Assembly (NCBI GenBank): GCA_002331145.1
Contig: DCYT01000002.1
Location: 23,337-87,336 of the forward strand
Source of the DNA: Candidatus Minusculum obligatum
GTDB lineage: Bacteria; Patescibacteriota; Minisyncoccia; Phycocordibacterales; Phycocordibacteraceae
Reading direction: 5' to 3'
Length of the DNA stretch: 64,000 bases
Part shown: positions 44,098 to 64,000 of the stretch, one piece after another
Layout of the letters: every line of letters begins with the position of its first letter
How positions within the stretch are numbered: the first letter of the stretch is position 1
Made by a program: the position numbers and the translations under genes
The notes under the pieces: model-generated
Database searches by the model: none
Told to the model about the DNA's origin: nothing
The model's input: the letters and a program-made list of their open reading frames with translations, nothing else

Positions 44098-44382
44098 ATG
44101 TTCATATCTTCAAACATCGAACAGTCAGCAGAGCTTCTAAAACTTTTAGGAGACACTACTCGATTGAAAATCCTTAATCTTCTTTTCTCTGAAGATCGAG
44201 ATATGTGTGTAAATGAAATTGCCTACGAAGTAGGAGCAAGTCAGTCAGCAACAAGTCATCAGCTTTCCAAATTAGAGGCACTTAATATAGTGTCTTGTTT
44301 TCGTGATGGTCAAAAGGTTTGTTATGAATTAACTGACAAGCCAATTGTCGATTCTATTAGAAATATTTTGAAAGTTGTATGA
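44098..44382 (+). CDS. ArsR/SmtB-family transcriptional regulator
   Basis: ELLKLLGDTTRLKILNLLFSEDRDMCVNEIAYEVGASQSATSHQLSKL is an HTH. 94 aa. Heads a 5-gene operon linked by 4-nt overlaps. Confidence 0.85.
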   Translation: MFISSNIEQSAELLKLLGDTTRLKILNLLFSEDRDMCVNEIAYEVGASQSATSHQLSKLEALNIVSCFRDGQKVCYELTDKPIVDSIRNILKVV

Positions 44383-45374: not shown

Positions 45375-45375
45375 T

Positions 45376-46017: not shown

Positions 46018-46517
46018 AAGTAACCCTAGGAATTGTCGTCGTTATCCTAATAGCTCTTGGAGCGATACTTTTCTTTGCGGGTAGTAGTGAGAATACAGTG
46101 CGTGCACAGGTGCCAGATTTGGCACTAATACAGCATGGAGGTGAAGAGGTTGCGTTAGCAGAGATTAAAGGATTTGCTGTGCTTAATAGTTGGGCAACAT
46201 GGTGTCCATTTTGTGTGCAGGAAGTTCCAGATTTTGTAGAGCTACAGAAAGAATTTGAAAACGTATCTGTGGTTCTTATAAATCGTAGTGAGGACGCTGC
46301 CAAAGCAGAAGCTTTCTTGGAGGGTAGAGGAGTGAATCTTTCAGATCTTATATTCCTTGAAGATCCTAAAGATTCCTTCTATAAGGGAATTGGAGGGTTC
46401 TCAATGCCTGAGACACTCTTTGTAAAAGATGGAGAAGTAATCTTCCATAAGAGAGGATTCATAAACTTGTCTGAAATGAGAGATTTAACCACTAGCTTAA
46501 TAAATGGAACACTATGA
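46014..46517 (+). CDS. TlpA/ResA-like thioredoxin-fold thiol-disulfide oxidoreductase
   Basis: WATWCPFC active site. N-terminal TM helix. ATGA overlap with the upstream dsbA. Confidence 0.8.
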   Translation: MKVTLGIVVVILIALGAILFFAGSSENTVRAQVPDLALIQHGGEEVALAEIKGFAVLNSWATWCPFCVQEVPDFVELQKEFENVSVVLINRSEDAAKAEAFLEGRGVNLSDLIFLEDPKDSFYKGIGGFSMPETLFVKDGEVIFHKRGFINLSEMRDLTTSLINGTL

Positions 46518-47284
46518 TTGAAGTAGAAATAGGATTCATCATCTCAGCATTCATTGCAGGCCTTGTTATGTTCTTGGCACCCTGCACGCTTCCCATTGTT
46601 CCTGCATACCTTGGGTTCATTAGTGGTGTATCTCTTAAAGATCTTGCAAAGCTTGAGGGAGAAGAGCGAAGGAGGGTTCAAAGAAAGATTTTCCTAAACG
46701 GCGTTGCATTCATTCTTGGATTCACACTCATCTTTGTGCTCTTTGGAACGCTCGCTGGGCTTTTGGGAGAAGCGCTGGCGCCGGTTCGAATATGGCTTGC
46801 TCGAATAGGCGGGGTACTTGTAATACTCTTTGGACTTTTCATGCTTGGAGTATTTGATCTTAAATTCCTGCAGACAGAGAAGAGACTAAAACTTCCTTCA
46901 TTTATGAAGATTGGGTCTCCAACAACTTCATTTGGTATAGGATCAGCATTTGCATTTGGGTGGACTCCTTGTGTTGGTCCAATTCTTGCAAGTATTCTTC
47001 TTCTTGCTTCAACTTCCTCAACAGCATTCCAGGGAGGATTCCTGCTCCTTATCTTTTCTCTAGGGCTTGCAGTACCGTTTCTTATTGTTGCTGCAGCAAC
47101 AAGCTATGCAAGCTCATTTATTGAGAGGGGAGGGAAATTCTTAAAGTATGTCTCTATTATCGGAGGAATATTCCTTCTAGGTCTTGGAACACTGCTCCTC
47201 ACAGACAATTTTGGTCTTCTTATCCAGTATGGGTATCAGTATTTTGATTTCCTAAACTATGAAGCGCTACTAGATTATCTGTAG
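46514..47284 (+). CDS. ccdA: Cytochrome c biogenesis/thiol-disulfide transporter CcdA (DsbD transmembrane domain)
   Basis: LAPCTLPIVPAYLGF (TM1 Cys) and GWTPCVGPILASIL (TM4 Cys). ATGA overlap with tlpA. Confidence 0.85.
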   Translation: MIEVEIGFIISAFIAGLVMFLAPCTLPIVPAYLGFISGVSLKDLAKLEGEERRRVQRKIFLNGVAFILGFTLIFVLFGTLAGLLGEALAPVRIWLARIGGVLVILFGLFMLGVFDLKFLQTEKRLKLPSFMKIGSPTTSFGIGSAFAFGWTPCVGPILASILLLASTSSTAFQGGFLLLIFSLGLAVPFLIVAAATSYASSFIERGGKFLKYVSIIGGIFLLGLGTLLLTDNFGLLIQYGYQYFDFLNYEALLDYL

Positions 47285-51388: not shown

Positions 51389-53044
51389 ATGCCATCCATG
51401 ACTCAAAGAGAAGCTCTCGATATCCTAAAGGCTGGCCGAAATGTATACCTTACTGGTCCTGCTGGAAGTGGAAAAACATACGTATTAAATCAATACACAA
51501 AATACCTAAAAGAGCGGGGAGTTGTAACTGCAATTACCGCATCTACTGGTATAGCAGCAACACATATAGGAGGCATGACGATACATTCATGGAGTGGTAT
51601 TGGCATCAAAGATACGCTCTCAGATTCTGACATCGATCTTCTTGTACAAAAGGAACATCTTTTTAAGCGGTACGAAAAAACAAAGGTTCTTATCATTGAT
51701 GAAGTTTCCATGATGCATCCTGAGATGTTTGATGCACTTGATCGACTGGCCAGAGCAATGAAAATGAATGAGAAGCCTTTTGGAGGAATGCAAATTGTAT
51801 TATCTGGTGACTTCTTTCAGCTTCCACCAATAACAAAAGGAGGAGGGAGTATCTATGTAGATAGTTCAAAGGCTTGGAAAAGTATGGATATTCGAGTGTG
51901 TTATCTAGAAGAACAGCACAGACAGCAAGGAGGATCACTGGAAAATATCTTGTCTGAAATACGTGATGGAGAAATTTCATACAGTACACAAGAGATATTC
52001 GAAGAACTTCTCGAGAATAAACAAAGATTAAATGGAGAGCCAACTCGCTTGTATACACACAATGCAGATGTAGACGCTATTAATGAAGCAGAGCTTGAGA
52101 AGCTCGAGGGAGAGCTCTTTTCATACGAAATGGATTCAAGAGGGAAGGCAAATCTTGTAACAAGTCTTTCAAAGAGTATTTTGGCACCTCAATACCTAAA
52201 TATTAAAAAGGACGCAATTGTGATGTTTGTAAAAAACTCTTTTGAAGAAGGGTATGTAAATGGAACTCTTGGAAGAGTTGTTGATTTTGAAGAGGGTAGT
52301 CCTGTTGTAGAAACATACGAGGGAAAGAAAATAACAGTATCTCCTGCAACATGGGAGATTCAAGATGATGGAAAAGTATTAGCTGCGGTAGATCAACTGC
52401 CTATTCGTCTTGCTTGGGCCATAACGGTACACAAAAGCCAGGGAATGAGCCTTGATGCAGTGGAGATGGATCTTTCAAAATCTTTTGTGCCAGGACAAGG
52501 ATATGTAGCACTTTCAAGACTTCGTGATATTGAAGGGCTCACGCTCCTTGGGCTTAATCGCATGGCACTTACTGTGGATCCGTATGTAATTGAACTAAAC
52601 AAATGGCTTTTAGATGAATCTGCAAAATGGTCCAAAAGAATTGCGAAGTTTAGTAAAGAAGAGTTTGTAAAAATGCATGAGGAGTTTGTAGATAGGTGTG
52701 GCGGAACAAATGATGAGAGGGAGATAGAAAAGAACAAGGCAGCAAAAGAATATGAGGGTATGCAGGAGGTAATTCCATCTCACCACAAAACTCTTGTATT
52801 GCTTGAAGAGAAGATGAGTCTCAAAGATATGGCAAAAGAGCGGAAAGTAACAAAAGCAACAATCATTTCTCATCTAGAGAAGTTAAAGAGTGAAGGTGTT
52901 GGAGACTATGAGTATCTAAAACCCAAAGGTCTTGCAGCAATGAAAAAGGTAATAAAAGAAGAGGAGAAATTATCTTCTGCGCACAAGAAGCTGAGAGGGA
53001 AATATACGTACGAAGATTTGAGACTTGCGAGGTTATTTGCCTAG
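51389..53044 (+). CDS. Pif1/RecD-like superfamily 1B DNA helicase
   Basis: Walker A TGPAGSGKTY, LIIDEVSMM, GGMQIVLSGDFFQLPPI, C-terminal AITVHKSQGMSLDAVEMDL and a C-terminal HTH-like tail. 551 aa. Confidence 0.8.
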   Translation: MPSMTQREALDILKAGRNVYLTGPAGSGKTYVLNQYTKYLKERGVVTAITASTGIAATHIGGMTIHSWSGIGIKDTLSDSDIDLLVQKEHLFKRYEKTKVLIIDEVSMMHPEMFDALDRLARAMKMNEKPFGGMQIVLSGDFFQLPPITKGGGSIYVDSSKAWKSMDIRVCYLEEQHRQQGGSLENILSEIRDGEISYSTQEIFEELLENKQRLNGEPTRLYTHNADVDAINEAELEKLEGELFSYEMDSRGKANLVTSLSKSILAPQYLNIKKDAIVMFVKNSFEEGYVNGTLGRVVDFEEGSPVVETYEGKKITVSPATWEIQDDGKVLAAVDQLPIRLAWAITVHKSQGMSLDAVEMDLSKSFVPGQGYVALSRLRDIEGLTLLGLNRMALTVDPYVIELNKWLLDESAKWSKRIAKFSKEEFVKMHEEFVDRCGGTNDEREIEKNKAAKEYEGMQEVIPSHHKTLVLLEEKMSLKDMAKERKVTKATIISHLEKLKSEGVGDYEYLKPKGLAAMKKVIKEEEKLSSAHKKLRGKYTYEDLRLARLFA

Positions 53045-53090: not shown

Positions 53091-53094
53091 TGCT

Positions 53095-53465
53095 CCGTAT
53101 ATATGATGAAATCCGAATGTATTTCAGACGGAGTCTGAAATGAACGGCGAGAGCCGGTGGTGGCCCGTACATACACCTCCGCGAGGTGATCTCCACATAC
53201 TTTCCGCACCGACACGACAAGCTAACGCTCGCCGTGCACAAATAGAATCCTTCTTTGCACTTTTATCCTTTCCTGCGCCCCCATTTTTTGGGAAAGAAGA
53301 AAAGAAGTTTCTATTTGCCTTCTGCTCCGCAGAAGGGGTGCTTGTACCTCCAGGTATGTGTTTACTTCCCCTAGAGAAGCAAAAGGCACTTTCCAGAGCC
53401 TCTAGCGAGGCTTCCAAACGCTTCAATTACACCAATTGAAGCGTTTGAGGGGAAAGTGTGTAGAT
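53095..53465. ncRNA. Candidate structured non-coding RNA of about 370 nt. GC-rich and hairpin-dense. Strand and identity unresolved; RNase P RNA or another housekeeping RNA is possible.
   Basis: Locally GC-rich (about 55-60%) within an AT-rich genome. Lies between convergent genes. Contains at least 6 perfect 6-14-bp stems (for example tttcagac-ggag-tctgaaa, ccttctgc-tcc-gcagaagg, caaacgcttcaatt-acacc-aattgaagcgtttg, cacctc-cgc-gaggtg). The ORFs on both strands (53124..53426 -, 53140..53439 +) are low-complexity and non-protein-like. On the minus strand, GGAGCAGAAGGCAAAUAG and GGUGCGGAAAG resemble RNase P blocks, but their order is non-canonical. Confidence 0.3.
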
Positions 53466-53469
53466 ATTT

Positions 53470-53856
53470 CTAAGCAAGAGCATCAATGCTTTGTTTAAGT
53501 TGTTTTTCTACATCTTGAGCAACACCTTTAAGTATATCTGATTCAACCATACTCATTGCGGCAGAAGGAAGGATAGAAGAAACATATGTATTCTTGTTTT
53601 GTTCATACACAATCACATTACAAGGAAGAAGGAGTCCTATTTCTTTTTCTGCTGAAAGTGCTTTGTGCGCAAATGTAGGATTACATGCGCCAAGAATTGT
53701 GTAGCGATCATAATCAGCGCCAATTTTTTCTTTCATGGTTTTTTGTACATCAATAGTTGTAAGTACTCCAAAACCATTATCAGCGAGTGACTTTTTTACA
53801 GCACCAATTGCCTCATCAAAAGAAAGGGACGTCTTTACGGTGTGACTGTATTTCAT
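53470..53856 (-). CDS. DUF302-domain protein
   Basis: ILGACNPTFAHKALSAEKEIGLLLPCNVIVYE block. 128 aa. Confidence 0.65.
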   Translation of the reverse strand: MKYSHTVKTSLSFDEAIGAVKKSLADNGFGVLTTIDVQKTMKEKIGADYDRYTILGACNPTFAHKALSAEKEIGLLLPCNVIVYEQNKNTYVSSILPSAAMSMVESDILKGVAQDVEKQLKQSIDALA

Positions 53857-54092
53857 GCAAGTTTATTATATGTCACTGCAAACAGATAGAAGGCAATAAA
53901 TGACATAATTGCAGCTTCAATCATCCCTGTTAGTGTTCCAACAATAGTGGGGGAATAGAAGAGGTGCATTTCTTGCATTGCTGAAACTGCAATCGTATAA
54001 ATTCCCAGAGAGTTAAAGATAGTTAGAAGGAGCATGATAAGAGCAGAAACAATTCCTGCTGCATACCCAAGTGCTTTTGCATGTAATTTCAT
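53853..54092 (-). CDS. Small hypothetical membrane protein (79 aa), translationally coupled to the DUF302 gene
   Basis: Two TM helices. ATGA overlap. Confidence 0.45.
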   Translation of the reverse strand: MKLHAKALGYAAGIVSALIMLLLTIFNSLGIYTIAVSAMQEMHLFYSPTIVGTLTGMIEAAIMSFIAFYLFAVTYNKLA

Positions 54093-54170
54093 ATCAGAAA
54101 AGATTTACTTTAATAAAATAGGGGATAAAGAATTGACGTATAATACCCCCTAGGGGTATTATACCTTCTA

Positions 54171-54443
54171 ATGAAGAAAGATATCAAGAAGAGAGTTGTG
54201 CACAGGTTGAAAATCATCGAGGGGCAAGTGAAAGGTTTGCAAAGAATGGCAGAAGAAGAAGAGTATTGTATTAGCATCATTACTCAAGTTTCAGCAATGA
54301 GGCAAGCACTTTCTTCTGTAGAAGACTTAATGCTTGAAAATCACTTACTTACACATGTGGTGAGTCAAATGAAGAGCAAGAAAGGTCAAACGAAAGCAGT
54401 GGAGGAAATGTTGTCCATTTATAAACTTTCAAAGAAAAAGTAG
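54171..54443 (+). CDS. CsoR/RcnR/FrmR-family (DUF156) metal- or persulfide-sensing transcriptional repressor
   Basis: RLKIIEGQVKGLQRMAEEEEYCISIITQVSAMRQAL...LENHLLTHV: Cys in the YC motif, and an H-x-x-x-H where CsoR has H-x-x-x-C. Confidence 0.75.
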   Translation: MKKDIKKRVVHRLKIIEGQVKGLQRMAEEEEYCISIITQVSAMRQALSSVEDLMLENHLLTHVVSQMKSKKGQTKAVEEMLSIYKLSKKK

Positions 54444-54447
54444 ATAT

Positions 54448-55275
54448 ATGAATGCAAAAATACTTGGAATTGGAGCTTTTGTCGCACTACTCATTGCTGG
54501 CTTTGTGTTGGTGCAAGGTGGTGTTCCAGAATCTAAAATGGTTGAAGAGCACAGTGATTCTCTAGAATCATACGAAATGAGTCCTTCACAAGCTGTTAGC
54601 CGAATGCAAAGCAAAGATGATGTTGTGGTTCTTGATGTTCGAACAATTCAAGAATATGAAGAAATTCACCTTCAAAATGCTCTCTTGCTCCCCGTGCAGG
54701 AACTTTCTCAAGCTTCACTTGATGCGATTGGTCTTTCTGACAAAGATCAGGAAATAATTCTCTATTGCAGGAGTGGTGCTCGGAGTAAGACGGCTTTCGA
54801 TATCATGAATTCTCTTGGGTATACAAATATAAAAAGCGTTGCAGGAGGGATGATTCATTGGCAAGAAGATAATTACCCACTTACAGAGGTAGGAAAATTC
54901 AATGAATCAAAGAATATTCAGGAAAGTGACGAAAACACAATGGGTCCAAAGATAAGTGTCGATCGTAAGCTACATGATTTTGGAGAGATTCCTCAATTTG
55001 CAGGTGTAGTACAGACTATGTTTACTGTTACAAATTTGGGGACAGAAACTCTTACTGTTGGCGATATTACAACTAGTTGTAGCTGTACATCAGCAACACT
55101 GTCTTCATATTCTATTGGGGTGGGAGAGAGCGCTGAACTTACCGTTCTCTTTGACCCTGATTTACACGAAGAGCCAGAGGGTGTGTTTACACGAACGGTA
55201 TTTATCCCAAGTAATGACGTGAATACTCCAGAGGCAGAAGTTGCAGTACAAGTCGATATATTAGAAGGAGTTTAA
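54448..55275 (+). CDS. Membrane-anchored rhodanese (sulfurtransferase) domain fused to a DUF1573 Ig-like domain
   Basis: Rhodanese active-site loop ILYCRSGARSKTA. C-terminal DUF1573-like FGEIPQFAGVVQTMFTVTNLGTETLTVGDITTSCSCT. Confidence 0.7.
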   Translation: MNAKILGIGAFVALLIAGFVLVQGGVPESKMVEEHSDSLESYEMSPSQAVSRMQSKDDVVVLDVRTIQEYEEIHLQNALLLPVQELSQASLDAIGLSDKDQEIILYCRSGARSKTAFDIMNSLGYTNIKSVAGGMIHWQEDNYPLTEVGKFNESKNIQESDENTMGPKISVDRKLHDFGEIPQFAGVVQTMFTVTNLGTETLTVGDITTSCSCTSATLSSYSIGVGESAELTVLFDPDLHEEPEGVFTRTVFIPSNDVNTPEAEVAVQVDILEGV

Positions 55276-55286
55276 AATTAGATAAT

Positions 55287-55757
55287 ATGAATAATTACAT
55301 CGTAGGAGCACTAGTTATTGCAGGAGCACTTATTGCAGGAGCAATATTCTTTGTGGGTGGAGGTCCTGTTACAGAAAAGGTTGTGGCATCGGAGATTACT
55401 CTTGAGGCAAACGAGTATGATTTTGGTGACATTGATATTTTTGGTGGAAAGGTAAAAGCAACTTTCCCACTTACAAATACTGGAAGTGCTGATGTGACAG
55501 TGCTGTCTGGAGTTACAAGTTGTATCTGTACAGAAGGAGAAATAGATTCACTTTCCTTTGGCATGCATGGAAGTGATGGCGAGACAGTAATACCGGCAGG
55601 AGAGACAAGGGAGTTGGTTGCAATATATGATCCATTAGCACATGGTCCTGATGGAGTTGGGAAAATAAAGCGACAGTTGCAACTAAAGACAAACTCTTCG
55701 GTAACTGAGTACATCGACGTAAGTTTTACAGGAAATGTAGTAAAGAATGCTGAGTAA
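55287..55757 (+). CDS. DUF1573 Ig-like domain protein with a signal anchor
   Basis: YDFGDIDIFGGKVKATFPLTNTGSADVTVLSGVTSCICT: a paralogous fold to the C-terminus of the upstream protein. Confidence 0.6.
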   Translation: MNNYIVGALVIAGALIAGAIFFVGGGPVTEKVVASEITLEANEYDFGDIDIFGGKVKATFPLTNTGSADVTVLSGVTSCICTEGEIDSLSFGMHGSDGETVIPAGETRELVAIYDPLAHGPDGVGKIKRQLQLKTNSSVTEYIDVSFTGNVVKNAE

Positions 55758-55771
55758 TAAATAATATTCTC

Positions 55772-56725
55772 ATGGATAAAGTAAAAATAGCACTCGTAGG
55801 TATCGCATTCATTCTCTTGTCAATCATGCTTGTTGGAGGATTTAGTCTACTGACTTCTCCTACTATGGTTCCAGGATTTTCTCTGGCATTTTTGGCAGGG
55901 ATATCAATGATTGTGCTTCCGTGTACTTTTCCTCTTGTGTTTATCATTGTTCCTCTTGCGCTCTCAAAACAAAACGTGAAGAAAGGCATCATTATGGCAC
56001 TTCTTTTTGGTCTTGGTCTTACCGTTACATTTACGCTGTATGGTCTAGCACTCGGATGGCTGGGTGGTTTCGTTGGATTGTACAAAGTTGTCAGTGCAAT
56101 GCTTCTTATTGGAGGTATAGCAGCCCTCTTCTTTGGATTGGCAGAACTTGGTTTAGTGAACTTCTCTTTGCCATTTCGAAAAACTATTCTTCCACAGTCG
56201 CTCCAGCAAAAGAATGACTACATACGGAGCTTCTTTCTAGGCTTCTTCTTGGGAAACGCCGGAGTTGGTTGTCCAAATCCAGCCTTCTACATATTGTTTG
56301 GGTACGTTGCCACACTTGGAGATCCTATTACTGGGGCGTCTCTTGGAGCATTACATGGAATAGGAAGAATGGTTCCTCTTCTATTTCTAGTAGTTCTTGC
56401 AATTCTTGGAATAAATATGATGGAAAAGGTGAGTGCATATCAGGAAAGGGTAAAGCGTTGGGTTGCATGGTCGCTTGTTGTGCTTGGAGCATTCATACTT
56501 AACTATGGACTCTTTGGCATGGCATGGTTTGAAAAATCAGGTATTCATGAAGCATGGAATCAGTTCCTTCTTGCGGTAGTTCCAAAAATTGCAGAGTCAG
56601 CAGAGCTTGAGTCAGCTCTGCAGCTTCCGCAGGGTGTTGGTGGTATTATGCCCTGGATAGTTCTTGGTGCGGTTATAAGTGGGGTAATTGTATGGAGTGC
56701 GGTTAAGGCACGAAATAGTAAATAA
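55772..56725 (+). CDS. DsbD_2/CcdA-like thiol-disulfide transmembrane electron transporter (second copy in the window)
   Basis: Cys in TM1 (IVLPCTFPLV) and Cys in a later TM (GVGCPNPAFYIL). About 8 TM helices. Confidence 0.65.
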   Translation: MDKVKIALVGIAFILLSIMLVGGFSLLTSPTMVPGFSLAFLAGISMIVLPCTFPLVFIIVPLALSKQNVKKGIIMALLFGLGLTVTFTLYGLALGWLGGFVGLYKVVSAMLLIGGIAALFFGLAELGLVNFSLPFRKTILPQSLQQKNDYIRSFFLGFFLGNAGVGCPNPAFYILFGYVATLGDPITGASLGALHGIGRMVPLLFLVVLAILGINMMEKVSAYQERVKRWVAWSLVVLGAFILNYGLFGMAWFEKSGIHEAWNQFLLAVVPKIAESAELESALQLPQGVGGIMPWIVLGAVISGVIVWSAVKARNSK

Positions 56726-56727
56726 TT

Positions 56728-56880
56728 ATGACTAACTTTATACAAATAGCATATGCACATGGAGGAGAGGAAGTTGAAGCTGTAACAGCTCTTGATTTCT
56801 CAGGGCCACTTATTGCTCTGGGAATGATTGTTGCAGCAATTATTATTGCAAAAATTATTTCTAAGAAAAAAATAACATGA
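56728..56880 (+). CDS. Small membrane peptide (50 aa) whose stop overlaps the start of the Grx-like gene
   Basis: MTNFIQIAYAHGGEEVEAVTALDFSGPLIALGMIVAAIIIAKIISKKKIT. Not in the ORF track (under 60 aa). TGA/ATG overlap at 56877. Confidence 0.35.
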   Translation: MTNFIQIAYAHGGEEVEAVTALDFSGPLIALGMIVAAIIIAKIISKKKIT

Positions 56881-57134
56881 TTAAAGTAACACTTGTCCGC
56901 CCAGAAGGATGTCATCATTGTAAGGAGGTTAAAAACACACTTGAGGGAATGAGAGATGAATTTCCTGATATTTCAATTGAAGAAATTGATATGGTTACAC
57001 CTGAAGGAAGGGAGCTTGTTCAAAAATATCAGATGCTATCAAGCCCAGGGATTTTAATTAATGATGAATTCTTTGCTTTTGGCGGCGCTACTGAGGAACA
57101 GTTTAGAAAAAAGTTTAACGAAATTAATGGCTAG
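56877..57134 (+). CDS. Glutaredoxin/NrdH-like small thioredoxin-fold protein (CxxC = CHHC)
   Basis: VTLVRPEGCHHCKEVKNTLEGM. 85 aa. Confidence 0.6.
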   Translation: MIKVTLVRPEGCHHCKEVKNTLEGMRDEFPDISIEEIDMVTPEGRELVQKYQMLSSPGILINDEFFAFGGATEEQFRKKFNEING

Positions 57135-57155
57135 GCCTGGTAAAGAATAAAGAAA

Positions 57156-57869
57156 ATGTTGTTGGGAATTAAAAGTAAAAAAGTTGCACTCTTGCGCCAC
57201 TTAGCAATGGCTATTGTTGGGGGATTGCTTGTGTATTTGGTTTGGTCACTTAATGGTACGTGGAGTCCAGATATGCGGTTGTGGAAAGCATTTGGTGGAG
57301 CATCTTTTTTCCTCCTATGGTTTGCTGTTGTTATTGGGCCGTTAGCAAAGCTTCTTCCATCATTTAACTTAATGCTCTCGTATCGTCGCGAGGCAGGAGT
57401 TTGGTTTTTTATCATTGCATTGGTGCACGGATATCTCATTCTTGATGGCTGGGTGCGGTGGAATGTATGGGAATTTTTCGGCTATCAATACTTTACTGAA
57501 GTAGAGATGTATTTAAGAGTTGAGCCTGGGTTTGGATTAGCAAGTTTACTTGGACTTGTTGCTCTCATGTTTGCTCTTGCGCTTGCTGCAACATCTTTTG
57601 ATTGGGCAGTTAATCTTCTAGGTATTACTTCTTGGAAATGGTTGCATATGTTTGCGTACGTTGTGTTTTATTTGGCAGCAATGCATGTTGTATATTTTGC
57701 CTTTATTCATTACACACCTTCGTTTAATAGGCTTGCTATGGGGCTTCCAACAGATTATCCAGATAACCCATTGAAATATTATTATCTCAACGCACTTCTG
57801 AGTGTGTTTGTTTTGCAGACATCTGCTTTTATTGCAACGGTACGTAAAAATAAAAGAGCAAGCTGGTAG
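57156..57869 (+). CDS. Ferric-reductase-type (FRD/MsrQ-like) di-haem transmembrane protein
   Basis: His pair spaced 13 apart on one helix (LHMFAYVVFYLAAMH). His in an earlier helix (IIALVHGYLIL). Six TM helices. Confidence 0.65.
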   Translation: MLLGIKSKKVALLRHLAMAIVGGLLVYLVWSLNGTWSPDMRLWKAFGGASFFLLWFAVVIGPLAKLLPSFNLMLSYRREAGVWFFIIALVHGYLILDGWVRWNVWEFFGYQYFTEVEMYLRVEPGFGLASLLGLVALMFALALAATSFDWAVNLLGITSWKWLHMFAYVVFYLAAMHVVYFAFIHYTPSFNRLAMGLPTDYPDNPLKYYYLNALLSVFVLQTSAFIATVRKNKRASW

Positions 57870-57872
57870 CGT

Positions 57873-58553
57873 ATGGTATTTGAAACAATAATTAAAGGAC
57901 GTAAAAAAGTTGCAAAAGGTACTTGTGAAATAACTTTCAAAAGACCCGAGAAATTTGTATTTAAAGCAGGGCAATATATACAAATTGCCATACCAGAATT
58001 ACTTAGTCCGGATTTAAGGGGTAATTCACGGCTATTTTCTGTCACTTCGTCTCCGGACGATTTAGAAAATATCCGCGTAGTTTTTAGAGTCTCTACTAGT
58101 GGATTCAAACAAACATTGGTGAGTATGCCAGTTGGTGCAACAGTGCAAATTGAACAGGCTGCTGGCAGTTTTGTTTTACCGCAATCACCAAAACAGCAAC
58201 AAATTTTTGTTGCTGGCGGTGTTGGCATCTCTCCATTTATGAGCTACTTCAATCAAGAGAATACTCCATTTGAGAAAGGGCAGACTACTCTTTTTTATGG
58301 AAATCAAAACGAAGAGAGTGCCGCATATGTTACTGAGCTCCGCGCTTTTGCAAAGAGGTATCAATCTTTTTCACTTCAAGAGCTGTATGAAAGACCTTCC
58401 TCTGAATTCTTTAGGAGAAATGCGCAAATGTATAAAGATGCTACGTGGTGGGTGGTTGGGCCACCGGCAATGGTTGGAGTTGTTGTAAACGGACTTCAAT
58501 TAGGGGGTGTGGACCAAAATAATATTATAACTGAACCCTTTGAAGGATATTAG
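57873..58553 (+). CDS. FNR-fold FAD/NAD(P)H oxidoreductase (Fre-like flavin reductase), encoded separately from the FRD membrane domain
   Basis: RLFSVTSSP (RxYS FAD motif), IFVAGGVGISP (GGxGxxP NAD(P)H motif) and a C-terminal WWVVGPPAMV. Confidence 0.7.
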   Translation: MVFETIIKGRKKVAKGTCEITFKRPEKFVFKAGQYIQIAIPELLSPDLRGNSRLFSVTSSPDDLENIRVVFRVSTSGFKQTLVSMPVGATVQIEQAAGSFVLPQSPKQQQIFVAGGVGISPFMSYFNQENTPFEKGQTTLFYGNQNEESAAYVTELRAFAKRYQSFSLQELYERPSSEFFRRNAQMYKDATWWVVGPPAMVGVVVNGLQLGGVDQNNIITEPFEGY

Positions 58554-58557
58554 ACAT

Positions 58558-59328
58558 ATGAAAAATACTTTAGGATTAATTGTTTTTATTCTCGTACTTG
58601 TTGCACTAACTGCAATATTTTTTCTGAATGGTAGAAATACAGAAGTAACAATCGATGAAATATTTTCTGTATCTGCTCAGGATATTAAAGATCAAATTAC
58701 CATTGATCGTGTTGTTATGGACCAGCCAGGATTTATTGTGGCACGAGAAATTATAGATGGAAAACCGGGGCAGATAGTGGAAGTAAGTAAGTATTTAAAG
58801 GCGGGCGAAAATGTTGATGTTGTTATAGGTCTTGCACAACCATTAATTGAGGGGGTTGGTGTGAGCAGCGATCAATTTGATCAAGAAATTGTTGTTGCTG
58901 TGTATTATGATGATGGAGATAAGGGCTTTAATCCGTCTCTTGATTCTCTTGCATATCGTGAAGGGGAAGTGCTCGCACGGTTTGTCAAAACAGGAGTAAT
59001 GGCGCCTGAGTCAGCAGTGGTGCCAAACACTAAGGGTGAAAATATTGATGTTGCTCAAATAGTTACCTATACAGACAGTGGGTTTATTCCTCGGAACAGT
59101 GAAATTTCTTCTGGTGATACTGTTCGATTTATTAATAAGAGCAGTAATCAAATGTGGGTTGCCTCAAATGGGCATCCGGCACATATGATACTTCCAACAT
59201 TTGATCAGTTTAGTGCTTCTTCATATGGTGAAAGTTATGAATACACTTTTGAAAAAGAGGGGGTGTGGGAGTATCACGATCACATAAATGCTAGCCAGGT
59301 TGGTGTCATGTTAGTTCATTCAAATTAA
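58558..59328 (+). CDS. Membrane-anchored protein with a C-terminal cupredoxin-like domain that lacks the canonical type-1 copper cysteine (HDH in place of C..H)
   Basis: GDTVRFINKSSNQMWVASNGHPAHM...YEYTFEKEGVWEYHDHINASQVGVMLV follows the cupredoxin pattern (N.S....H....YEY.C..H..M.G...V) with Cys replaced by Asp. Confidence 0.55.
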   Translation: MKNTLGLIVFILVLVALTAIFFLNGRNTEVTIDEIFSVSAQDIKDQITIDRVVMDQPGFIVAREIIDGKPGQIVEVSKYLKAGENVDVVIGLAQPLIEGVGVSSDQFDQEIVVAVYYDDGDKGFNPSLDSLAYREGEVLARFVKTGVMAPESAVVPNTKGENIDVAQIVTYTDSGFIPRNSEISSGDTVRFINKSSNQMWVASNGHPAHMILPTFDQFSASSYGESYEYTFEKEGVWEYHDHINASQVGVMLVHSN

Positions 59329-59333
59329 ATTAC

Positions 59334-59804
59334 ATGCAAAATACAATAAATATTTGGGGAGTGTCTGCCATTATTGGCATAACGGTTTTGTTACTTGGTG
59401 GCGTTGCATTGTTGCCAAAAGCTCCTACAGGAGAGGGAGATGCTGTTGCTGCGGGACTCCATTGGCATCCTGAATTGCAAATTTTTGTTGATGAAGAAAA
59501 GCAGCAAATTCCAGCAAACATAAGGCTTGGTGGTGGCGGACATCAGCCAATACATACACACACAGAAGATGTTGAGGAAGGAGTACTTCACTTTGAGTTT
59601 GGAGGAGTTGCCTATACTGGAGATCTTCGTTTAGGAAACTTCTTCCGTATTTGGGGAAATAAAGATATGCAAACAGCGTTTGGCGTACTTGAACGAATGA
59701 TAGTAAATGGAGAAGAAAACAGTGAATTTGGAGAATATATTGTACAAAGTGAAGACAAAATAGAGCTCCACTACAACACTTTATTGCAGGGAGAGGTTAT
59801 GTAG
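59334..59804 (+). CDS. His-rich hypothetical exported protein (HWHP...HQPIHTHTED), a candidate metal binder
   Basis: Signal anchor, then LHWHPELQIFVD...GGGGHQPIHTHTEDVEEGVLHFEF. Confidence 0.5.
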   Translation: MQNTINIWGVSAIIGITVLLLGGVALLPKAPTGEGDAVAAGLHWHPELQIFVDEEKQQIPANIRLGGGGHQPIHTHTEDVEEGVLHFEFGGVAYTGDLRLGNFFRIWGNKDMQTAFGVLERMIVNGEENSEFGEYIVQSEDKIELHYNTLLQGEVM

Positions 59805-59847
59805 GCATGTTATTATTACTTAAATAAAAAAATAAAATATTGTTACT

Positions 59848-60573
59848 ATGGAAGAAAAAAAGAAAGAAGGGATGAATTTGGCAGTTCCGGGTGCGATTAT
59901 GTTTGCTGGAATACTCATTGCTGGCGCATTAGTGTTCTCCTCACTGCAAAGCAGTGGGGGACAGCAAGTAGCTGAAGAGGCTCCACAAGACGCAGGGTCT
60001 CTTGACGCAATGGATCCAGTGTCAGAAAAAGATCACGTTCGAGGGAATCCAAATGCTCCAGTTATGATTGTTGAGTATTCAGACTATGAATGTCCTTTCT
60101 GTAAGCGCTTCCATGAGACCATGAACCAGGTTATGGATACATATGGTGCTGAAGGAAAAGTTGCGTGGGTATATCGGCACTTTCCTCTTGACCAACTCCA
60201 TCCAGTAAAAGCTCGGCAAGAAGCTGCCGCAGCAGAATGTGTTGCTGAAATTGGCGGAGATGACATGTTTTGGAGGTTCTCAGATAGATTCTTTGAGCTT
60301 ACGCCATCTAACAATCAAACCGACCTCACCGTGGTTCTTCCACAAATTTATTCTGAACTAGGTCTTTCGCAAGCAAAGGTGAATGAGTGTGTTGCAAGTG
60401 GGAGGTATGATGATCATATTCAAGCTGAGTTTGAAAATGCTGTGGCAACAGGAGGTCGTGGTACGCCGTGGAGCATTCTTATAGCTGCAGACGGTACAAA
60501 GTACCCACTGTCTGGCGCACAACCTCTTAGTGCTATAAATCAGCTTATTGAACTTGGATTAGGAAACAACTAG
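59848..60573 (+). CDS. DsbA-like thiol:disulfide oxidoreductase (paralog 3)
   Basis: IVEYSDYECPFCKRFHETM and VAWVYRHFPL. N-terminal TM helix. About 50% identical by eye to paralogs 1 and 2. Confidence 0.85.
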   Translation: MEEKKKEGMNLAVPGAIMFAGILIAGALVFSSLQSSGGQQVAEEAPQDAGSLDAMDPVSEKDHVRGNPNAPVMIVEYSDYECPFCKRFHETMNQVMDTYGAEGKVAWVYRHFPLDQLHPVKARQEAAAAECVAEIGGDDMFWRFSDRFFELTPSNNQTDLTVVLPQIYSELGLSQAKVNECVASGRYDDHIQAEFENAVATGGRGTPWSILIAADGTKYPLSGAQPLSAINQLIELGLGNN

Positions 60574-60577
60574 TCTT

Positions 60578-61099
60578 ATGGAGAAGCAAAGAATATTCGC
60601 ATATATTCTTATTGGAGCCATCATTTCTTTCATTGTTTTTTCTCTTGCTGTATTTCTTCCAAACCTTACTCTTGTATGGACGATAGCAAATTCTCCTGCT
60701 TTGTTAGGTGAAAAATTTGCACTGCTTGTGAGTTTATATGGTGCTATTGGAACAAACTTTACATTTCTTGCAGCGGGGTACACCATTTTGATGTCTCTCT
60801 TGTTTGGCTTAAATGTCACACTGCTGATTTATCTTGTGCGTAGCAGGAGTGTTGGTGCTGTTGGTAAAAATGCCGCAGTTAGTATAGGGGGTCTTATAAG
60901 TGGAATACTGGGTGTTGGGTGTGCTGCTTGTGGAACATTTATCCTCTCAGCGGTACTTGGACTTGTAGGTGCAGCCGGGTTACTTACGCTTCTACCGCTT
61001 GGTGGAGAAGAGTTTGGAATAGTGGGTGTTCTTTTGCTAGCATATACAACATATGCACTGGTTAAAAAAATTCGTGAACCAAATGTTTGCAGCGCTTAG
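60578..61099 (+). CDS. Hypothetical polytopic membrane protein with an intramembrane GCAACG (CxxC) motif
   Basis: GILGVGCAACGTFILSAVLG. 4-5 TM helices. Confidence 0.5.
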   Translation: MEKQRIFAYILIGAIISFIVFSLAVFLPNLTLVWTIANSPALLGEKFALLVSLYGAIGTNFTFLAAGYTILMSLLFGLNVTLLIYLVRSRSVGAVGKNAAVSIGGLISGILGVGCAACGTFILSAVLGLVGAAGLLTLLPLGGEEFGIVGVLLLAYTTYALVKKIREPNVCSA

Positions 61100-61108
61100 A
61101 TAGCTAGT

Positions 61109-61570
61109 ATGGATACACTGATTATATTTCTTGGAAGCTATTTGCATTTCTTCATTATTGCAACAGCTTTATTAAGTGTTATTTTTGCATCTTCAAAAAT
61201 ACGTCTAGAATACATCTCTTTCTTAATTTTTGTTGGACTGCTTGCTTATTTGTTAGGAGAGTTAGTCGGTATGGTTGTATATAATCCACGACCCTTTGTT
61301 ATCTTAGAGGTTGTTCCACTTATTCCTCATGATCCAACAAACGGATTTCCTTCCACGCACGCACTTGTTTCTATAAGCATTGCTTTTGCTGTGTTTGTGT
61401 TTAATAAAAAACTTGGATTTGTACTTTTCTTGCTGGCAATCCTTGTTGGGGCTGGCCGTGTTTTTGCACAAATACACAGTGTTGAAGACGTTCTTGGGAG
61501 CATTGTTGTGGCGCTTGTGGCAGTATGTGTGGGGTTATTTGTCAAAAAGGTTTTTAAAAACCAATCCTAA
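61109..61570 (+). CDS. PAP2-superfamily membrane phosphatase
   Basis: PSTHALVSISIAF (PSGH-like) and AGRVFAQIHSVEDVLGS (SRxxxxxHxxxD) motifs. Confidence 0.65.
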   Translation: MDTLIIFLGSYLHFFIIATALLSVIFASSKIRLEYISFLIFVGLLAYLLGELVGMVVYNPRPFVILEVVPLIPHDPTNGFPSTHALVSISIAFAVFVFNKKLGFVLFLLAILVGAGRVFAQIHSVEDVLGSIVVALVAVCVGLFVKKVFKNQS

Positions 61571-61631
61571 TTTTAATGACATAACATTAATTAATGTGTA
61601 AGATTAACAAATAATTGACTAACAAAAATTT

Positions 61632-62372
61632 ATGGAAAAAAATACAGAGGAAGAATATAAAAAAAATCGAATGCAGACCAAACCTAAATCAAAAGCAGTT
61701 ACGTGGAGTCTAGCTGCCGTGGTTGTTCTTACAGGACTTATATGGGGTCTATCCTCTGGTTCAACAGATAATTCAACAGAAAAAAACTCGATAGCAAATA
61801 CGCTTACGGCAATTGTTGATGATGATTATATAGTTGGTCCAGCAAACGCACCTGTAACACTCATAGAGTACCTCGACTTTGAATGTGAAGCATGTGGTGC
61901 ATACTTTCCGCTAATAAAACAATTAGAGAAAGAGTTTCCAGATGATCTCCGGGTGGTGATGCGGTACTTCCCTCTACCAGGTCACAGAAATGGACTTACG
62001 GCAGCACTTGCCGTTGAAGCGGCAGCACAACAAGGAAAATACAACGAGATGCACGATCTATTATTTGAAGAACAGGAAAATTGGGGTGAGCGATCTGCAC
62101 CGGATCCTTTAATTTTCGAGGAATATGCAAAACAACTTGGGCTTGACACGGAACGATTCAAACAAGATGTATCTTTGCAATCTGTTAAGGATCGTATACA
62201 GCGTGATGTAGATTCAGGAAGAAAACTTGGCAATACTGGAACACCCTCATTCTTCCTAAATGGAAAAAAAATCAACAACCCGCGTAGCTATGAAACATTT
62301 CGACAATTAATTCTAGATGAAATTGAAATTGTTGGAGTGCAACATTCAACTTCTACCCAAATGCAGAATTAG
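61632..62372 (+). CDS. DsbA-like thioredoxin-fold oxidoreductase (divergent fourth paralog; CxxC = CEAC)
   Basis: LIEYLDFECEACGAYFPLI and VVMRYFPL. N-terminal TM helix. Confidence 0.75.
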   Translation: MEKNTEEEYKKNRMQTKPKSKAVTWSLAAVVVLTGLIWGLSSGSTDNSTEKNSIANTLTAIVDDDYIVGPANAPVTLIEYLDFECEACGAYFPLIKQLEKEFPDDLRVVMRYFPLPGHRNGLTAALAVEAAAQQGKYNEMHDLLFEEQENWGERSAPDPLIFEEYAKQLGLDTERFKQDVSLQSVKDRIQRDVDSGRKLGNTGTPSFFLNGKKINNPRSYETFRQLILDEIEIVGVQHSTSTQMQN

Positions 62373-62383
62373 TTAGCCATTGT

Positions 62384-62959
62384 ATGTCATTAGATCAATT
62401 CTCAACTTTGCTCACGCTTGGTTCTTCAGTACTTTTTGTAGGTCTAGCATTTATTGTGCTTGCTACTTGCACTTCAGAGAAGTTGCGTGAACATATGGCG
62501 CGTTTGGGGTACTTTTCTTACCTCTGGGTAATTGCTGGGGTATCGGCATTCTCTATAGCTAGCGCGTTTATTTATCAATTGGTTTATCTAACTCCTGTAT
62601 GTGAGCTATGTTGGATACAGCGTATTTTTTTCTACCCAATAGTTATTATAATGCTTGTCGCCATATGGCATCGTACGCGTGAGGCACACATCACCATAGC
62701 CATACTCTCTGCGCTTGGCCTGTTAGTGGCTATATATCATTACTATTATCAATTTCAGAAACTTGTTCTTGGAAATGTGCTGGCACTACCGTGTTCTTAC
62801 GGCGGACTTTTGCCAGCTTGTACGGATTCATCAATTCTTATATTCGGCTTTGTAACGATCCCTTTTATGGGCATACTTATGTTTGGAAGTTTTCTTTTAT
62901 TGGCCGGACTAGCTGAATTTGCTAAGAGACGCATGGATAGAATAATTAATAACAAATAA
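62384..62959 (+). CDS. Disulfide bond formation protein B (DsbB/BdbC-like)
   Basis: First loop Cys pair CELCWIQR. Second pair LPCSYGGLLPAC. Four TM helices. Confidence 0.7.
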   Translation: MSLDQFSTLLTLGSSVLFVGLAFIVLATCTSEKLREHMARLGYFSYLWVIAGVSAFSIASAFIYQLVYLTPVCELCWIQRIFFYPIVIIMLVAIWHRTREAHITIAILSALGLLVAIYHYYYQFQKLVLGNVLALPCSYGGLLPACTDSSILIFGFVTIPFMGILMFGSFLLLAGLAEFAKRRMDRIINNK

Positions 62960-62971
62960 TTATTCAGTATT

Positions 62972-64000
62972 ATGCAAAACAACAACTTTAAAATTGCCAG
63001 ATTGTTACTTGTAGGGGTGGTAATTTTAGCTGTTCTTATAATAGGAGGGAAGAATCTGGCACGTATTGATGCATATATATCATTGGTCATACAAGATAGT
63101 CAGGATGAGACATTAGAATATACAGAAAAAATAGAAATTGTTATCAAACCTGGTGATACGTTTGCGACAATCATGGAATCTGCTGGAGTGTCATATGATG
63201 AGACGGAGGCAATGCTTGCCTCAGCAAAAGATGTATATGATCTTACGAAACTACACTCTGGAAAGTTCCTGCACCTGTTCCTTGTAGAAGAGGCATTTGC
63301 CGCGGTTGATTACGACCTCAATGACGAGATGAAAATAGTCATCGAAAAATATGAGGACAGCTTTGAGGCACGAGAGGAGCCGATTGTTTACGATACCTAT
63401 CAAACAAGCGCTGAAGCTGTCATCACTTCTTCACTCTTTGTCGACGGAGCAGAGGCAGGTCTCTCTGATGTGACACTTCTCGCGCTTGCTGATATATTTG
63501 CTTGGGATATTGATTTCTTGACAGATATTCGTAAGGGAGATTCTTTCAATATTGTGTACAAGAAACGATTTCTCGACGGAGAAGAAGCTGGTCCGGGTAA
63601 CATACTTGCCGCCCGTTTTGATAACCAGGGAGTGACTCATGCCGCTTTTTATTATAAGGACGCCTTTGGAGAAGAAGGCTACTATGATCTTCAAGGTAAA
63701 TCCCTTTCTCGCCAATTCTTGAAGTCTCCACTTGATTATTCCTACATTAGCTCTGGATTCAGTTATAAACGCGTAAATCCTGTCACCAAACAACTGACTC
63801 CTCATCGTGCAATTGACTATGCAGCCGATACTGGAACACCGGTTATTGCGACTGCAGATGGCAAGGTAACTGCTGCCGGATCAAAGGGTGGTTTAGGGAT
63901 TACTGTGGAGATCAGGCATGGTAGTTACCTTACGCAATATGCTCATCTTTCACGTATTGCCAAAGGAGTAGAAAATGGGGCGGATGTCGCCCAAGGAGAT
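62972..64000 (+). CDS. M23-family metallopeptidase with an N-terminal TM anchor. 3' end beyond the window.
   Basis: HRAIDYAADTGTPVIATADGKV...GLGITVEIRHGSYLTQYAHLS (HxxxD ... HxH). Frame open to position 64000. Not in the ORF track because no stop is reached. Confidence 0.75.
   Translation, partial: MQNNNFKIARLLLVGVVILAVLIIGGKNLARIDAYISLVIQDSQDETLEYTEKIEIVIKPGDTFATIMESAGVSYDETEAMLASAKDVYDLTKLHSGKFLHLFLVEEAFAAVDYDLNDEMKIVIEKYEDSFEAREEPIVYDTYQTSAEAVITSSLFVDGAEAGLSDVTLLALADIFAWDIDFLTDIRKGDSFNIVYKKRFLDGEEAGPGNILAARFDNQGVTHAAFYYKDAFGEEGYYDLQGKSLSRQFLKSPLDYSYISSGFSYKRVNPVTKQLTPHRAIDYAADTGTPVIATADGKVTAAGSKGGLGITVEIRHGSYLTQYAHLSRIAKGVENGADVAQGD

Follow-up and report, generated by a model that had tools for sequence, protein, structure and literature searches.

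The stretch of Candidatus Minusculum obligatum DNA analyzed here (64,000 nt of contig DCYT01000002.1; hereafter the window) carries, at 54171-62959 on the plus strand, an island of 15 consecutive open reading frames (ORFs), g1 to g15, whose neighbors are set apart by anything from a 4-nt overlap to a 61-nt gap. A preliminary description of this DNA had pictured the island as an operon-like set of envelope thiol and metal redox genes behind a CsoR-family sensor, with two putative routes for moving electrons from the cytoplasm to the outside (by the assignments made here, one CcdA-like and thioredoxin-like, the other MsrQ-like and FNR-like), DsbA/DsbB oxidative folding, candidate metal-binding proteins, and an M23 peptidase gene downstream. 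This outline stands. All 15 ORFs lie where they had been placed, and the peptidase gene starts at 62972 and continues past the end of the window. Hidden Markov model (HMM) searches against Pfam, at the gathering score, and NCBIfam recovered nearly all of the proposed domains above threshold. For g5, g10, and g12 neither library holds a family, yet despite this absence all three are real conserved families. Within g1-g13 the largest intergenic gap is 43 nt, and terminator-like sites are no better than background. Homologs of the island proteins assign the organism to the Patescibacteria. The closest complete genome is that of UBA2103 (CP174360.1; locus L004 in our numbering of related loci), with a g10 product that is 91% identical, and by an exact-sequence look-up the same locus is present in several metagenomes of marine origin, Tara and JGI samples among them. 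ARAGORN detected no tRNA or tmRNA in the window. Mercury resistance was considered as a function encoded in the window and rejected, as neither MerA nor MerR is present there.

The first gene, g1 (54171..54443, +), encodes a 90-aa metal-sensing repressor of the CsoR family, which matches Pfam Trns_repr_metal (PF02583) at 84.4 bits against a cut-off of 22.8 bits and Streptomyces lividans CsoR with E = 6e-13. Residues C33, H58, and H62 align with C36, H61, and C65 of Mycobacterium tuberculosis CsoR, the Cu(I) ligand positions, which gives g1 the same C-H-H ligand set as Thermus thermophilus CsoR (3AAI); g1 orthologs that share this gene context carry either C-H-H or the canonical C-H-C. The sensor had earlier been left as CsoR/RcnR; the family assignment holds, and in its context the protein is closer to CsoR than to RcnR. 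It contains one cysteine and begins MKKDIKK, and its identification as CstR, FrmR, or RcnR was rejected because CstR needs two cysteines and g1 has neither the Pro2 of FrmR nor the His3 of RcnR.

The 78-nt spacer between g1 and a divergently oriented gene for a two-transmembrane (2TM) protein contains a CsoR operator, ATACCCCCTAGGGGTAT (54143..54159, both strands), in a palindrome that is perfect over 54137-54165. This is the sole match in the 64 kb, against 0.06 expected. Its core, TACCCCCTAGGGGTA, is identical to the operators of S. lividans copZA1 and copZA2 and fits the general rule TAC-N9-GTA that accompanies the experimental characterization of those sites (PMC3902906). Across 1.46 Mb of sequence made up of the window and related loci, this palindrome is present at 33 sites; 24 of these are immediately upstream of csoR and 4 more immediately upstream of a copper ATPase gene. 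The operator sits between the -35 and -10 elements of two divergent sigma-70-like promoters, which in a promoter scan were the two best in the region, one per strand: TTGACG-18-TATTAT (54133..54162, +; 10 of 12 matches) would serve g1 onward, and TTGATA-18-TATAAT (54158..54187, -; 11 of 12, the best match of all) would serve the divergent unit. The predicted -10 box of the former ends 8 nt ahead of the ATG, and thus the g1 mRNA would be near-leaderless. Judged by these sequence features, g1 and its operator look like a textbook CsoR copper switch.

The gene neighborhoods of relatives were compared in two surveys. The first was anchored on g10 and covered 78 species-representative genomes, every one of them from the Patescibacteria; the second was anchored on g7 and covered 32 metagenome contigs. 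Every ORF at the 110 loci was scored against the window proteins. At the g10 loci, the most frequent companions are a P1B ATPase (36 of 78), csoR (30), DsbA (28), and g12 (24), followed by an HMA-DsbD_2 protein (14), DUF305 (11), and Cupredoxin_1 (11). The ATPases that could be typed, from genome and metagenome loci together, divide into 20 with a CPC motif (CopA-type, with an HMA domain) and 19 with a CPH motif (CopB-type, with a His-rich N-terminus), both classes being copper pumps. At the g7 loci, g8 is found in 25 of 32, g9 in 18, g12 in 14, and DsbA in 11, and the typical block reads DsbA-g12-Cupredoxin_1-g9-g7-g8, often followed by g10, csoR, and an ATPase. Three loci each combine most of the window families with copA in another order: the L102 island ends DsbA-DsbA-DsbB, L108 reads copA...g4-g5-g6...DsbA-g12-cupredoxin-g9-g7-g8-g10, and L038 reads DsbA-g12-g10-csoR-copA-...-g9-...-g7-g8. 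The sub-blocks DsbA-g12, g9-g7-g8, and g4-g5-g6 are conserved; the full order of the island was found only in UBA2103, minus g14-g15, and is shuffled elsewhere. Conservation of the neighborhood therefore has two sides, in that the gene content recurs in relatives but the 15-gene order does not extend beyond the nearest one. A chance juxtaposition, which had been held open as the alternative to a conserved system, is contradicted by the co-occurrence of the same families throughout the surveyed genome and metagenome loci. Because the same dozen families re-assemble around csoR and copA in independent lineages and in different orders, selection for their co-localization is indicated. The relatives also speak against the earlier suggestion that the island is a self-contained system, since the copper ATPase that so often joins it there is missing from this window.

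Several of these loci bear genes that add to the picture of the relatives. In L025 (10342-11757), and likewise in L018, L019, L026, L029, L037, L038, and L102, an HMA-DsbD_2 fusion is followed by a small Cupredoxin_1 protein with a C...CxMxM pattern, which may match the Cu(I) site of the Streptococcus pneumoniae chaperone CupA. A second small cupredoxin type (H...C...H) lies between g12 and g9 in marine relatives, and neither type is present in the window. On informal comparison, C-H-H regulators tend to accompany DUF302 and CPH pumps and C-H-C regulators CPC pumps; L009 carries both regulator types. In UBA2163 (L005, 14612-16187), a second CsoR-type operator stands upstream of genes for a stand-alone rhodanese and a metallo-beta-lactamase-fold protein. 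The latter is possibly a persulfide dioxygenase, and the arrangement may point to a tie between copper and sulfur within this regulon.

Leftward from the operator, the divergent unit comprises a 79-aa 2TM protein with a weak match to DUF5676 (53853..54092, -) and a DUF302 protein (53470..53856, -; Pfam E = 1.3e-24). The L005 homolog of the former matches DUF5676 with E = 8e-6 and is encoded between DUF302 and a CPH ATPase; the family is also found near the g4 triad, described below, in L119. DUF302 adjoins csoR in 9 of the 78 genome loci and in L090, and a search of the literature for DUF302 together with copper yielded passing mentions only.

Rightward, g2 to g6 encode candidate components of a thiol route. 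The product of g2 (54448..55275, +) is a membrane-anchored extracytoplasmic fusion of a rhodanese (Pfam 1.6e-16, 61 bits), in which the six-residue catalytic cysteine loop is present (CRSGARS), to DUF1573 (3.9e-16), an Ig-like domain with a CxC motif; its NCBIfam matches are to the OS_HP2 (seleno)protein, with similarity to TsoB. A further membrane-anchored DUF1573 protein, with the CxC motif TSCICT, is encoded by g3 (55287..55757, +; Pfam 3.4e-11), and DUF1573 genes recur near g10 or csoR in 8 loci and near the g4 triad in L119. The rhodanese has several partners: it is fused to DUF1573 in the window, to g9 in six marine contigs, and to g10 in UBA2163. At the level of sequence, these alternate fusions are a Rosetta-stone link of sulfur transfer to the putative metal-binding and electron-accepting proteins of the island.

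The next three genes form a triad of transporter, small peptide, and thioredoxin-like protein. The CcdA/DsbD-type thiol-disulfide transporter g4 (55772..56725, +) matches Pfam DsbD_TM (6e-10; 39.2 bits against a cut-off of 27.1) and, as a second match, DsbD_2 (3e-6); it has two membrane cysteines, in the motifs LPCTFP and GCPNP, and is about 70% identical across many Parcubacteria lineages. The small cytoplasmic thioredoxin-fold protein g6 (56877..57134, +; Pfam Thioredoxin_3, Glrx-like) has the sequence CHHC, which in the family alignment becomes C-x-H-C. Between them lies g5 (56728..56880, +), which the family alignment defines as a 50-aa peptide with an A-H-(E/G) motif, an acidic stretch, and a C-terminal transmembrane (TM) anchor. 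The triad is kept in L108, where it adjoins copA, in L119, where it adjoins a YHS domain and DUF1573, and in L120, and the g6 homolog always follows g4-g5 in the window and the loci examined. The small ORFs that follow the CcdA-like gene in these loci (L108 3941-4192, L119 6977-7174, and L120 6789-6944) align with g5 as one conserved family, which has a signal-like segment ending in an invariant A-H (A10, H11), the acidic stretch, a GP motif (invariant G26, P27), and the TM anchor, the N-terminal segment of the window copy being unusually short by comparison. If cleaved ahead of the histidine, the peptide would present that residue at its N-terminus as a possible copper ligand. About 7-8 kb upstream of the island lies a second thiol-redox operon (44379-47284, +) encoding DUF3179, a third DsbA-like protein, a TlpA/ResA-like AhpC-TSA/Redoxin protein, and a second CcdA (DsbD_TM). 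Because of this operon, g4 is better viewed as a specialized paralog than as the housekeeping CcdA. A g4 homolog that is 52% identical occurs in another setting (L121, 1451-4510), in an operon that reads ArsR(HTH_5)-DsbD_TM-Thioredoxin_3-pyridine nucleotide disulfide oxidoreductase and has a DsbD_TM-DUF3179 fusion ahead of it, an arrangement that resembles a thiophilic-metal (mercury-like) or disulfide-reductase module.

The second electron route would be formed by g7 and g8. The ferric-reductase-domain membrane protein g7 (57156..57869, +) is of the MsrQ/STEAP type, with a Pfam Ferric_reduct match of 9e-8 (32.7 bits against a cut-off of 28) and MsrQ as the best NCBIfam match. Its R77, R78, H91, H164, and H177 align to R77, R78, H91, H151, and H164 of Escherichia coli MsrQ, a protein with one bis-His heme (H91/H164) and a flavin site formed by R77, R78, and H151 (PMC12525009). 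The alignment predicts one heme b, on the outer side, and an inner flavin site, in the MsrQ/STEAP pattern. The preliminary description had called g7 a di-heme protein, which does not agree with a residue set sufficient for one heme and a flavin. A NOX-type di-heme arrangement was specifically rejected, as the equivalent of TM3 has H91 only and the position of the second NOX histidine is occupied by Arg77. The product of g8 (57873..58553, +) is a cytoplasmic FNR-fold NAD(P)H flavoprotein that is Fre-like: Pfam NAD_binding_1 matches at 3.8e-9, FAD_binding_6/8 matches fall just under the cut-off, the motifs RLFSVTS and GGVGISP are present, and NAD(P)H-flavin reductase is among the NCBIfam matches. 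This gene directly follows g7 in 25 of the 32 metagenome loci, and the pair resembles an MsrQ with a dedicated Fre.

After g8, g9 (58540..59328, +) encodes a membrane-anchored protein that joins DUF7282 (5e-10) to a variant cupredoxin domain. Its start is likely the ATG at 58558, gene callers placing it six codons inside the ORF given here. A family profile of the C-terminal 100 aa matches type-1 copper domains in the PDB with E = 3e-10 to 3e-8, and 11 of 13 family members match Cupredoxin_1, which agrees with the prior view of g9 as a cupredoxin that has lost its copper cysteine. An invariant Asp (Asp90 of alignment A7) takes the place of the type-1 (T1) Cys, and Asn that of the T1 His, for which reason a canonical type-1 copper site was rejected. 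The conserved motifs HPxH and YHDH possibly mark a different, type-2-like metal site. In 19 of 33 loci g9 stands immediately ahead of g7, which makes its product the best candidate for the electron acceptor of g7.

The last genes before the right end of the core include two families that are absent from the libraries. The membrane-anchored His-rich protein g10 (59334..59804, +) has the invariant residues H43, H45, H74, H76, H86, and E88. Its AF2 model is confident (pLDDT 81) and beta-grasp-like, and the family profile found no match among PDB sequences and no close solved relative. Behind it lie g11 (59848..60573, +), a membrane-anchored DsbA-like protein with CPFC at its active site (Pfam Thioredoxin_4 1.4e-22, DSBA 7.6e-14), for which alpha-DsbA, MdbA, and BdbD are the closest structures and ScsC is farther off, and its partner g12 (60578..61099, +). 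The family alignment of g12 describes a four-TM protein with the invariants GxGCxxCG in a Gly-rich TM3, LPLxGxE, and a C-terminal Cys, the last predicted by the positive-inside rule to be cytoplasmic; searches of Pfam, NCBIfam, the PDB (by profile), and folds returned no relative. The g12 family, which comprises 1,940 clusters at 50% identity, is distributed over Patescibacteria and haloarchaea, and its gene directly follows a DsbA-like gene in 29 of 29 evaluable cases. This invariant order points to g12 as a dedicated membrane redox partner of the DsbA-like protein. In haloarchaeal (Haloarculaceae) genomes and two metagenome contigs (L115/L116 6268-7591; L117/L118 6291-7546), the pair has no copper genes nearby, and for that reason we regard it as an autonomous module older than its recruitment to copper islands. 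Among the longer g12 homologs none is fused to DsbA. One family member, P0356 (381 aa), has a C-terminal SAM-dependent methyltransferase fusion, unless this is a gene-calling artifact; such a fusion is consistent with a cytoplasmic C-terminus of g12.

Beyond the pair, g13 (61109..61570, +) encodes a PAP2-family membrane phosphatase (Pfam 2.2e-15), undecaprenyl-diphosphatase-like and with NCBIfam matches to SepP and to undecaprenyl-diphosphate phosphatase; PAP2 adjoins copA or csoR in L088, L089, and L096. A second membrane-anchored DsbA-like protein, g14 (61632..62372, +; CEAC; Pfam Thioredoxin_4 6e-26, DSBA 1.8e-15), shares with g11 an N-terminal hydrophobic anchor and scores above both the Thioredoxin_4 and DSBA cut-offs. 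It is preceded by the 61-nt gap, which has two promoter-like sites. The DsbB/BdbC-type protein g15 (62384..62959, +) matches Pfam DsbB at 1.4e-9 (39 bits against a cut-off of 22.1) and NCBIfam PRK03113 at 2e-17, and it has CELCWIQR and a second cysteine pair, C...C (LPCSYGGLLPAC). Then comes the M23 peptidase gene (62972..64000, +; Csd3_N2 and Peptidase_M23 by Pfam), which is cut by the window end and codes for 404 aa in L001. The otherwise collinear L004 has no g14: its collinearity with the window extends from DUF302 to PAP2, after which, as a comparison of L004 11776-14164 with 61109-64000 of the window shows, a flanking repeat and a serine recombinase replace DsbA2-DsbB-M23. The right end of the island is variable, and the genes from g14 onward are probably a separately transcribed housekeeping oxidative-folding unit that abuts it.

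This repeat, a structured element of about 200-230 nt, has its left copy at 53092..53317, and blastn places the right copy just past the window end. Copies that are 90-94% identical lie in L001 (9807-10032, after M23 and reversed) and L004 (1276-1644 and 12338-12563), and in two genomes they bracket the island in inverted orientation. In alignment with the predicted fold, the stems are invariant and substitutions fall in the loops, with no compensatory base changes to mark the repeat as an RNA. Neither the window nor the 53.0-53.5 kb spacer matched any Rfam family, whether at gathering or at E-value thresholds. A gene for a large serine recombinase borders the right copy in UBA2103, and a 2.5-kb block of four ORFs that the window does not have borders the left copy. 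Directly left of the repeat in the window is a gene for a Pif1-like helicase with a C-terminal HTH_40 domain (51389-53044, +); this left flank differs in UBA2103.

Taken together, we favor, with rather better than even confidence, the view that the region serves a marine patescibacterium as a copper-stress island, under the control of CsoR and active at the outer face of the membrane. Binding of Cu(I) at C33, H58, and H62 would make g1 leave the single operator common to the two divergent promoters, and its release would open transcription of the 2TM-DUF302 pair leftward and of g1 to at least g13 rightward. Homology and gene association suggest that the products then act on the outer face of the single membrane. 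In the thiol route, electrons would pass from g6 to g4, with the peptide g5, and on to the anchored CxC and rhodanese proteins g2 and g3; in the flavin/heme route they would pass from NAD(P)H through g8 and g7 to the Cys-less His4-Asp cupredoxin g9. The DsbA-like g11 would work with its CxxC membrane partner g12, and the His5-Glu protein g10 would bind metal. The joint outcome would be that exported cysteines and metal sites are held in the right redox state and that copper is bound or re-speciated outside the cell. By analogy, we infer that the island is a functional counterpart of the copper-induced Scs and MsrPQ systems of proteobacteria.

Some observations weigh against a copper-stress role. 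Neither CopA, CopB, DUF305, HMA-DsbD_2, nor the small cupredoxins were found in the 64-kb window by tblastn with queries from relatives, and in UBA2103 there is no gene for a copper exporter, HMA, or DUF305 within 10 kb of the island; with no exporter in either place, the copper role rests on orthology and association. In many relatives csoR and its operator lie downstream of the DsbA-g12-cupredoxin-g7-g8 block, and therefore control of that block by CsoR is not general. Import of electrons would turn Cu(II) into Cu(I), the more toxic form, an unexpected outcome for a detoxification system. Compared with C-H-C, moreover, a C-H-H ligand set is less copper-specific, and T. thermophilus CsoR answers to several metals in vitro. 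A rival reading has an effector other than copper, whether Ni/Co (the RcnR case), persulfide (CstR), or aldehyde (FrmR), in what would be a rhodanese-centered sulfur/persulfide or other-metal stress system. The C-H-H residues occupy the X-Y-Z positions of RcnR, NCBIfam gives sub-threshold matches to RicR, FrmR, and RcnR alike, rhodanese and CxC proteins come directly after g1, and the second operator of L005 is upstream of a rhodanese and metallo-beta-lactamase pair. We nevertheless hold this to be highly improbable: the single cysteine makes the dithiol mechanism of CstR impossible, the MKKD N-terminus is at odds with an FrmR or RcnR identity, the G-tract TAC-N9-GTA operator is of the CsoR type, and g1 orthologs directly precede CPC and CPH copper ATPases. 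Acquisition of copper or iron coupled to cuproprotein maturation would turn the absence of an exporter from the window to account. The MsrQ/Fre-like pair would then be an assimilatory cupric/ferric reductase, comparable to yeast Fre1 or STEAP, and the cupredoxin, His-rich, and thiol proteins would serve as Cu(I) chaperones for an importer or for enzymes that are exported. The FRD superfamily does include assimilatory metal reductases, MsrQ-like clusters have been linked to iron uptake (PMC8238504), and ZIP and CDF transporters lie within the L038 and L108 islands. Yet CsoR derepresses at high rather than low copper, the relatives' genes adjoin exporters (CPC/CPH ATPases) and DUF305 rather than importers, and the window has no obvious cuproenzyme client, which makes this an improbable explanation, if a little less so than a different effector.

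The genes might also be independent housekeeping units of envelope redox, brought together by chance or by mere compactness in a small genome that is gene-dense and strand-biased, with the sensor governing only g1 and perhaps g2-g3. Confinement of the full order to one relative would fit such an array, as would the housekeeping-like conservation of g4, the occurrence of its triad away from copper genes, the haloarchaeal DsbA-g12 pairs, the promoter-like sites ahead of g14, and the additional CcdA/TlpA/DsbA operon upstream. Against it stand the tight spacing of g1-g13, with no terminator-like site above background, the reassembly of the families around csoR and copA in independent lineages, and the domain fusions that tie rhodanese to g9 and g10, so that we judge it unlikely, though the least so of these three substitutes for a copper-stress island. 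Compatible with any functional reading is the proposal that the island is additionally a mobile or invertible segment, flanked by inverted repeats of about 200 nt and lying beside integration-prone DNA. The bracketing repeats in two genomes, the recombinase and four-ORF block at their copies in L004, and the different island ends in the window and L004 speak for it. The G+C content is, however, like that of the surroundings, the window has neither direct repeats nor a transposase, and the repeat could be a duplicated small RNA gene, though neither covariation nor an Rfam family backs that; on balance the proposal has perhaps a small chance of being right.

A bolder extension of the copper-stress reading, which we advance tentatively and would not ourselves expect to hold in full, is that g12 founds a third class of membrane partners of DsbA-like proteins, unrelated to DsbB and VKOR, and that g8-g7-g9, with or without rhodanese, together with the CcdA-fed rhodanese and CxC proteins, forms an extracellular copper-detoxifying machine. 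If so, g12 would let presumably quinone-poor cells drive or reverse extracytoplasmic disulfide chemistry by way of an intramembrane CxxC and a cytoplasmic Cys, and the machine, rather than serving repair, could act at the cell surface by capturing Cu(I) or by reducing a rhodanese persulfide so that sulfide is set free. Patescibacteria are episymbionts of ultra-small size and minimal metabolism, uncultured for the most part, and they meet metals and oxidants at an exposed single membrane. Here, about 2% of a genome of approximately 0.58 Mb may sit behind one copper switch and serve thiol and electron chemistry at the surface. The locus thereby offers several candidates: a family of DsbA partners that haloarchaea also have, a His-rich domain for metal binding that occurs within csoR-copA operons, an acceptor without Moco for the electrons of an MsrQ-type conduit, and a "wandering" rhodanese through which the transfer of sulfur would be linked with the handling of copper. 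The DsbA-g12 pair also bears on how DsbA is recycled in organisms without DsbB, VKOR, or quinones.

Literature searches that combined Patescibacteria/CPR with DsbA, copper, or CsoR brought up no account of such a system. The earlier statement that the island matches no described pathway is correct in that its parts list is largely new, but the overall design is known, with precedents in the CsoR copper switch, Scs, and MsrPQ. What is new are at least the g10 and g12 families and the association of MsrQ/Fre with a cupredoxin and rhodanese, which is undescribed. The regulatory part corresponds to the CsoR-copZA regulons of M. tuberculosis, Bacillus subtilis, S. lividans, and T. thermophilus, with which it shares the repressor fold, the C-H-(H/C) ligand positions, and the same G-tract TAC-N9-GTA palindrome overlapping the promoter, and g1 orthologs in relatives precede copA; here, however, the regulated set would be not CopZ and CopA but 12-14 extracytoplasmic redox and metal-binding genes. 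With the CcdA/ResA and DsbD pathways, g4 has in common the two membrane cysteines, the DsbD_TM fold, and an adjacent cytoplasmic thioredoxin-fold donor. It departs from them in that the acceptors would be DUF1573 CxC and rhodanese proteins in place of a ResA/TlpA thioredoxin, and in the conserved small A-H-E peptide encoded between the transporter and thioredoxin genes; the canonical CcdA-TlpA-DsbA operon is present separately in the window, at 44379-47284. As a small membrane protein of four helices that bears a CxxC and is encoded directly after a DsbA-like gene, g12 resembles DsbB and VKOR. In contrast to both, it has no sequence or fold match to either, its CxxC lies mid-membrane in a Gly-rich helix, and it has one further Cys and no obvious quinone-site residues.

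The flavin/heme route can be set beside MsrPQ-Fre, a two-component NOX-like system in which a Fre-like flavin reductase likewise supplies the electrons and whose MsrQ residues have equivalents in g7. MsrQ-like and DsbD-based clusters for extracytosolic electron transfer are widespread (PMC8238504), and in E. coli copper induces MsrPQ, which keeps copper-trafficking proteins reduced (PMC9302797). Unlike in MsrPQ, the reductase gene adjoins g7, and the neighbor and presumed acceptor is the Cys-less cupredoxin g9, sometimes fused to rhodanese; the molybdoenzyme MsrP is not among the 15 island ORFs or the HMM-scanned flanking genes. With type-1 cupredoxins, the C-terminal domain of g9 shares the fold, by profile, but not the His-Cys-His-Met ligands. 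A direct functional parallel would be Scs (ScsB/ScsC/ScsD), the accessory thiol oxidoreductases that copper induces in Salmonella (PMC10907172). Both are copper-linked accessory sets that stand beside canonical DsbA/DsbB, and both combine a membrane electron transporter with DsbA/DsbG-like partners, g11 and g14 being weakly similar to ScsC structures (E = 1e-5 to 5e-4). They differ in that the island has no ScsB-type fused periplasmic domains, its membrane partners being the minimal CcdA-like g4 and the unrelated four-TM CxxC protein g12, and in its CsoR rather than CueR/CpxR regulation and its setting in a single-membrane organism. Thus, by analogy, the island appears to be Scs-like in function without being a member of the Scs family.

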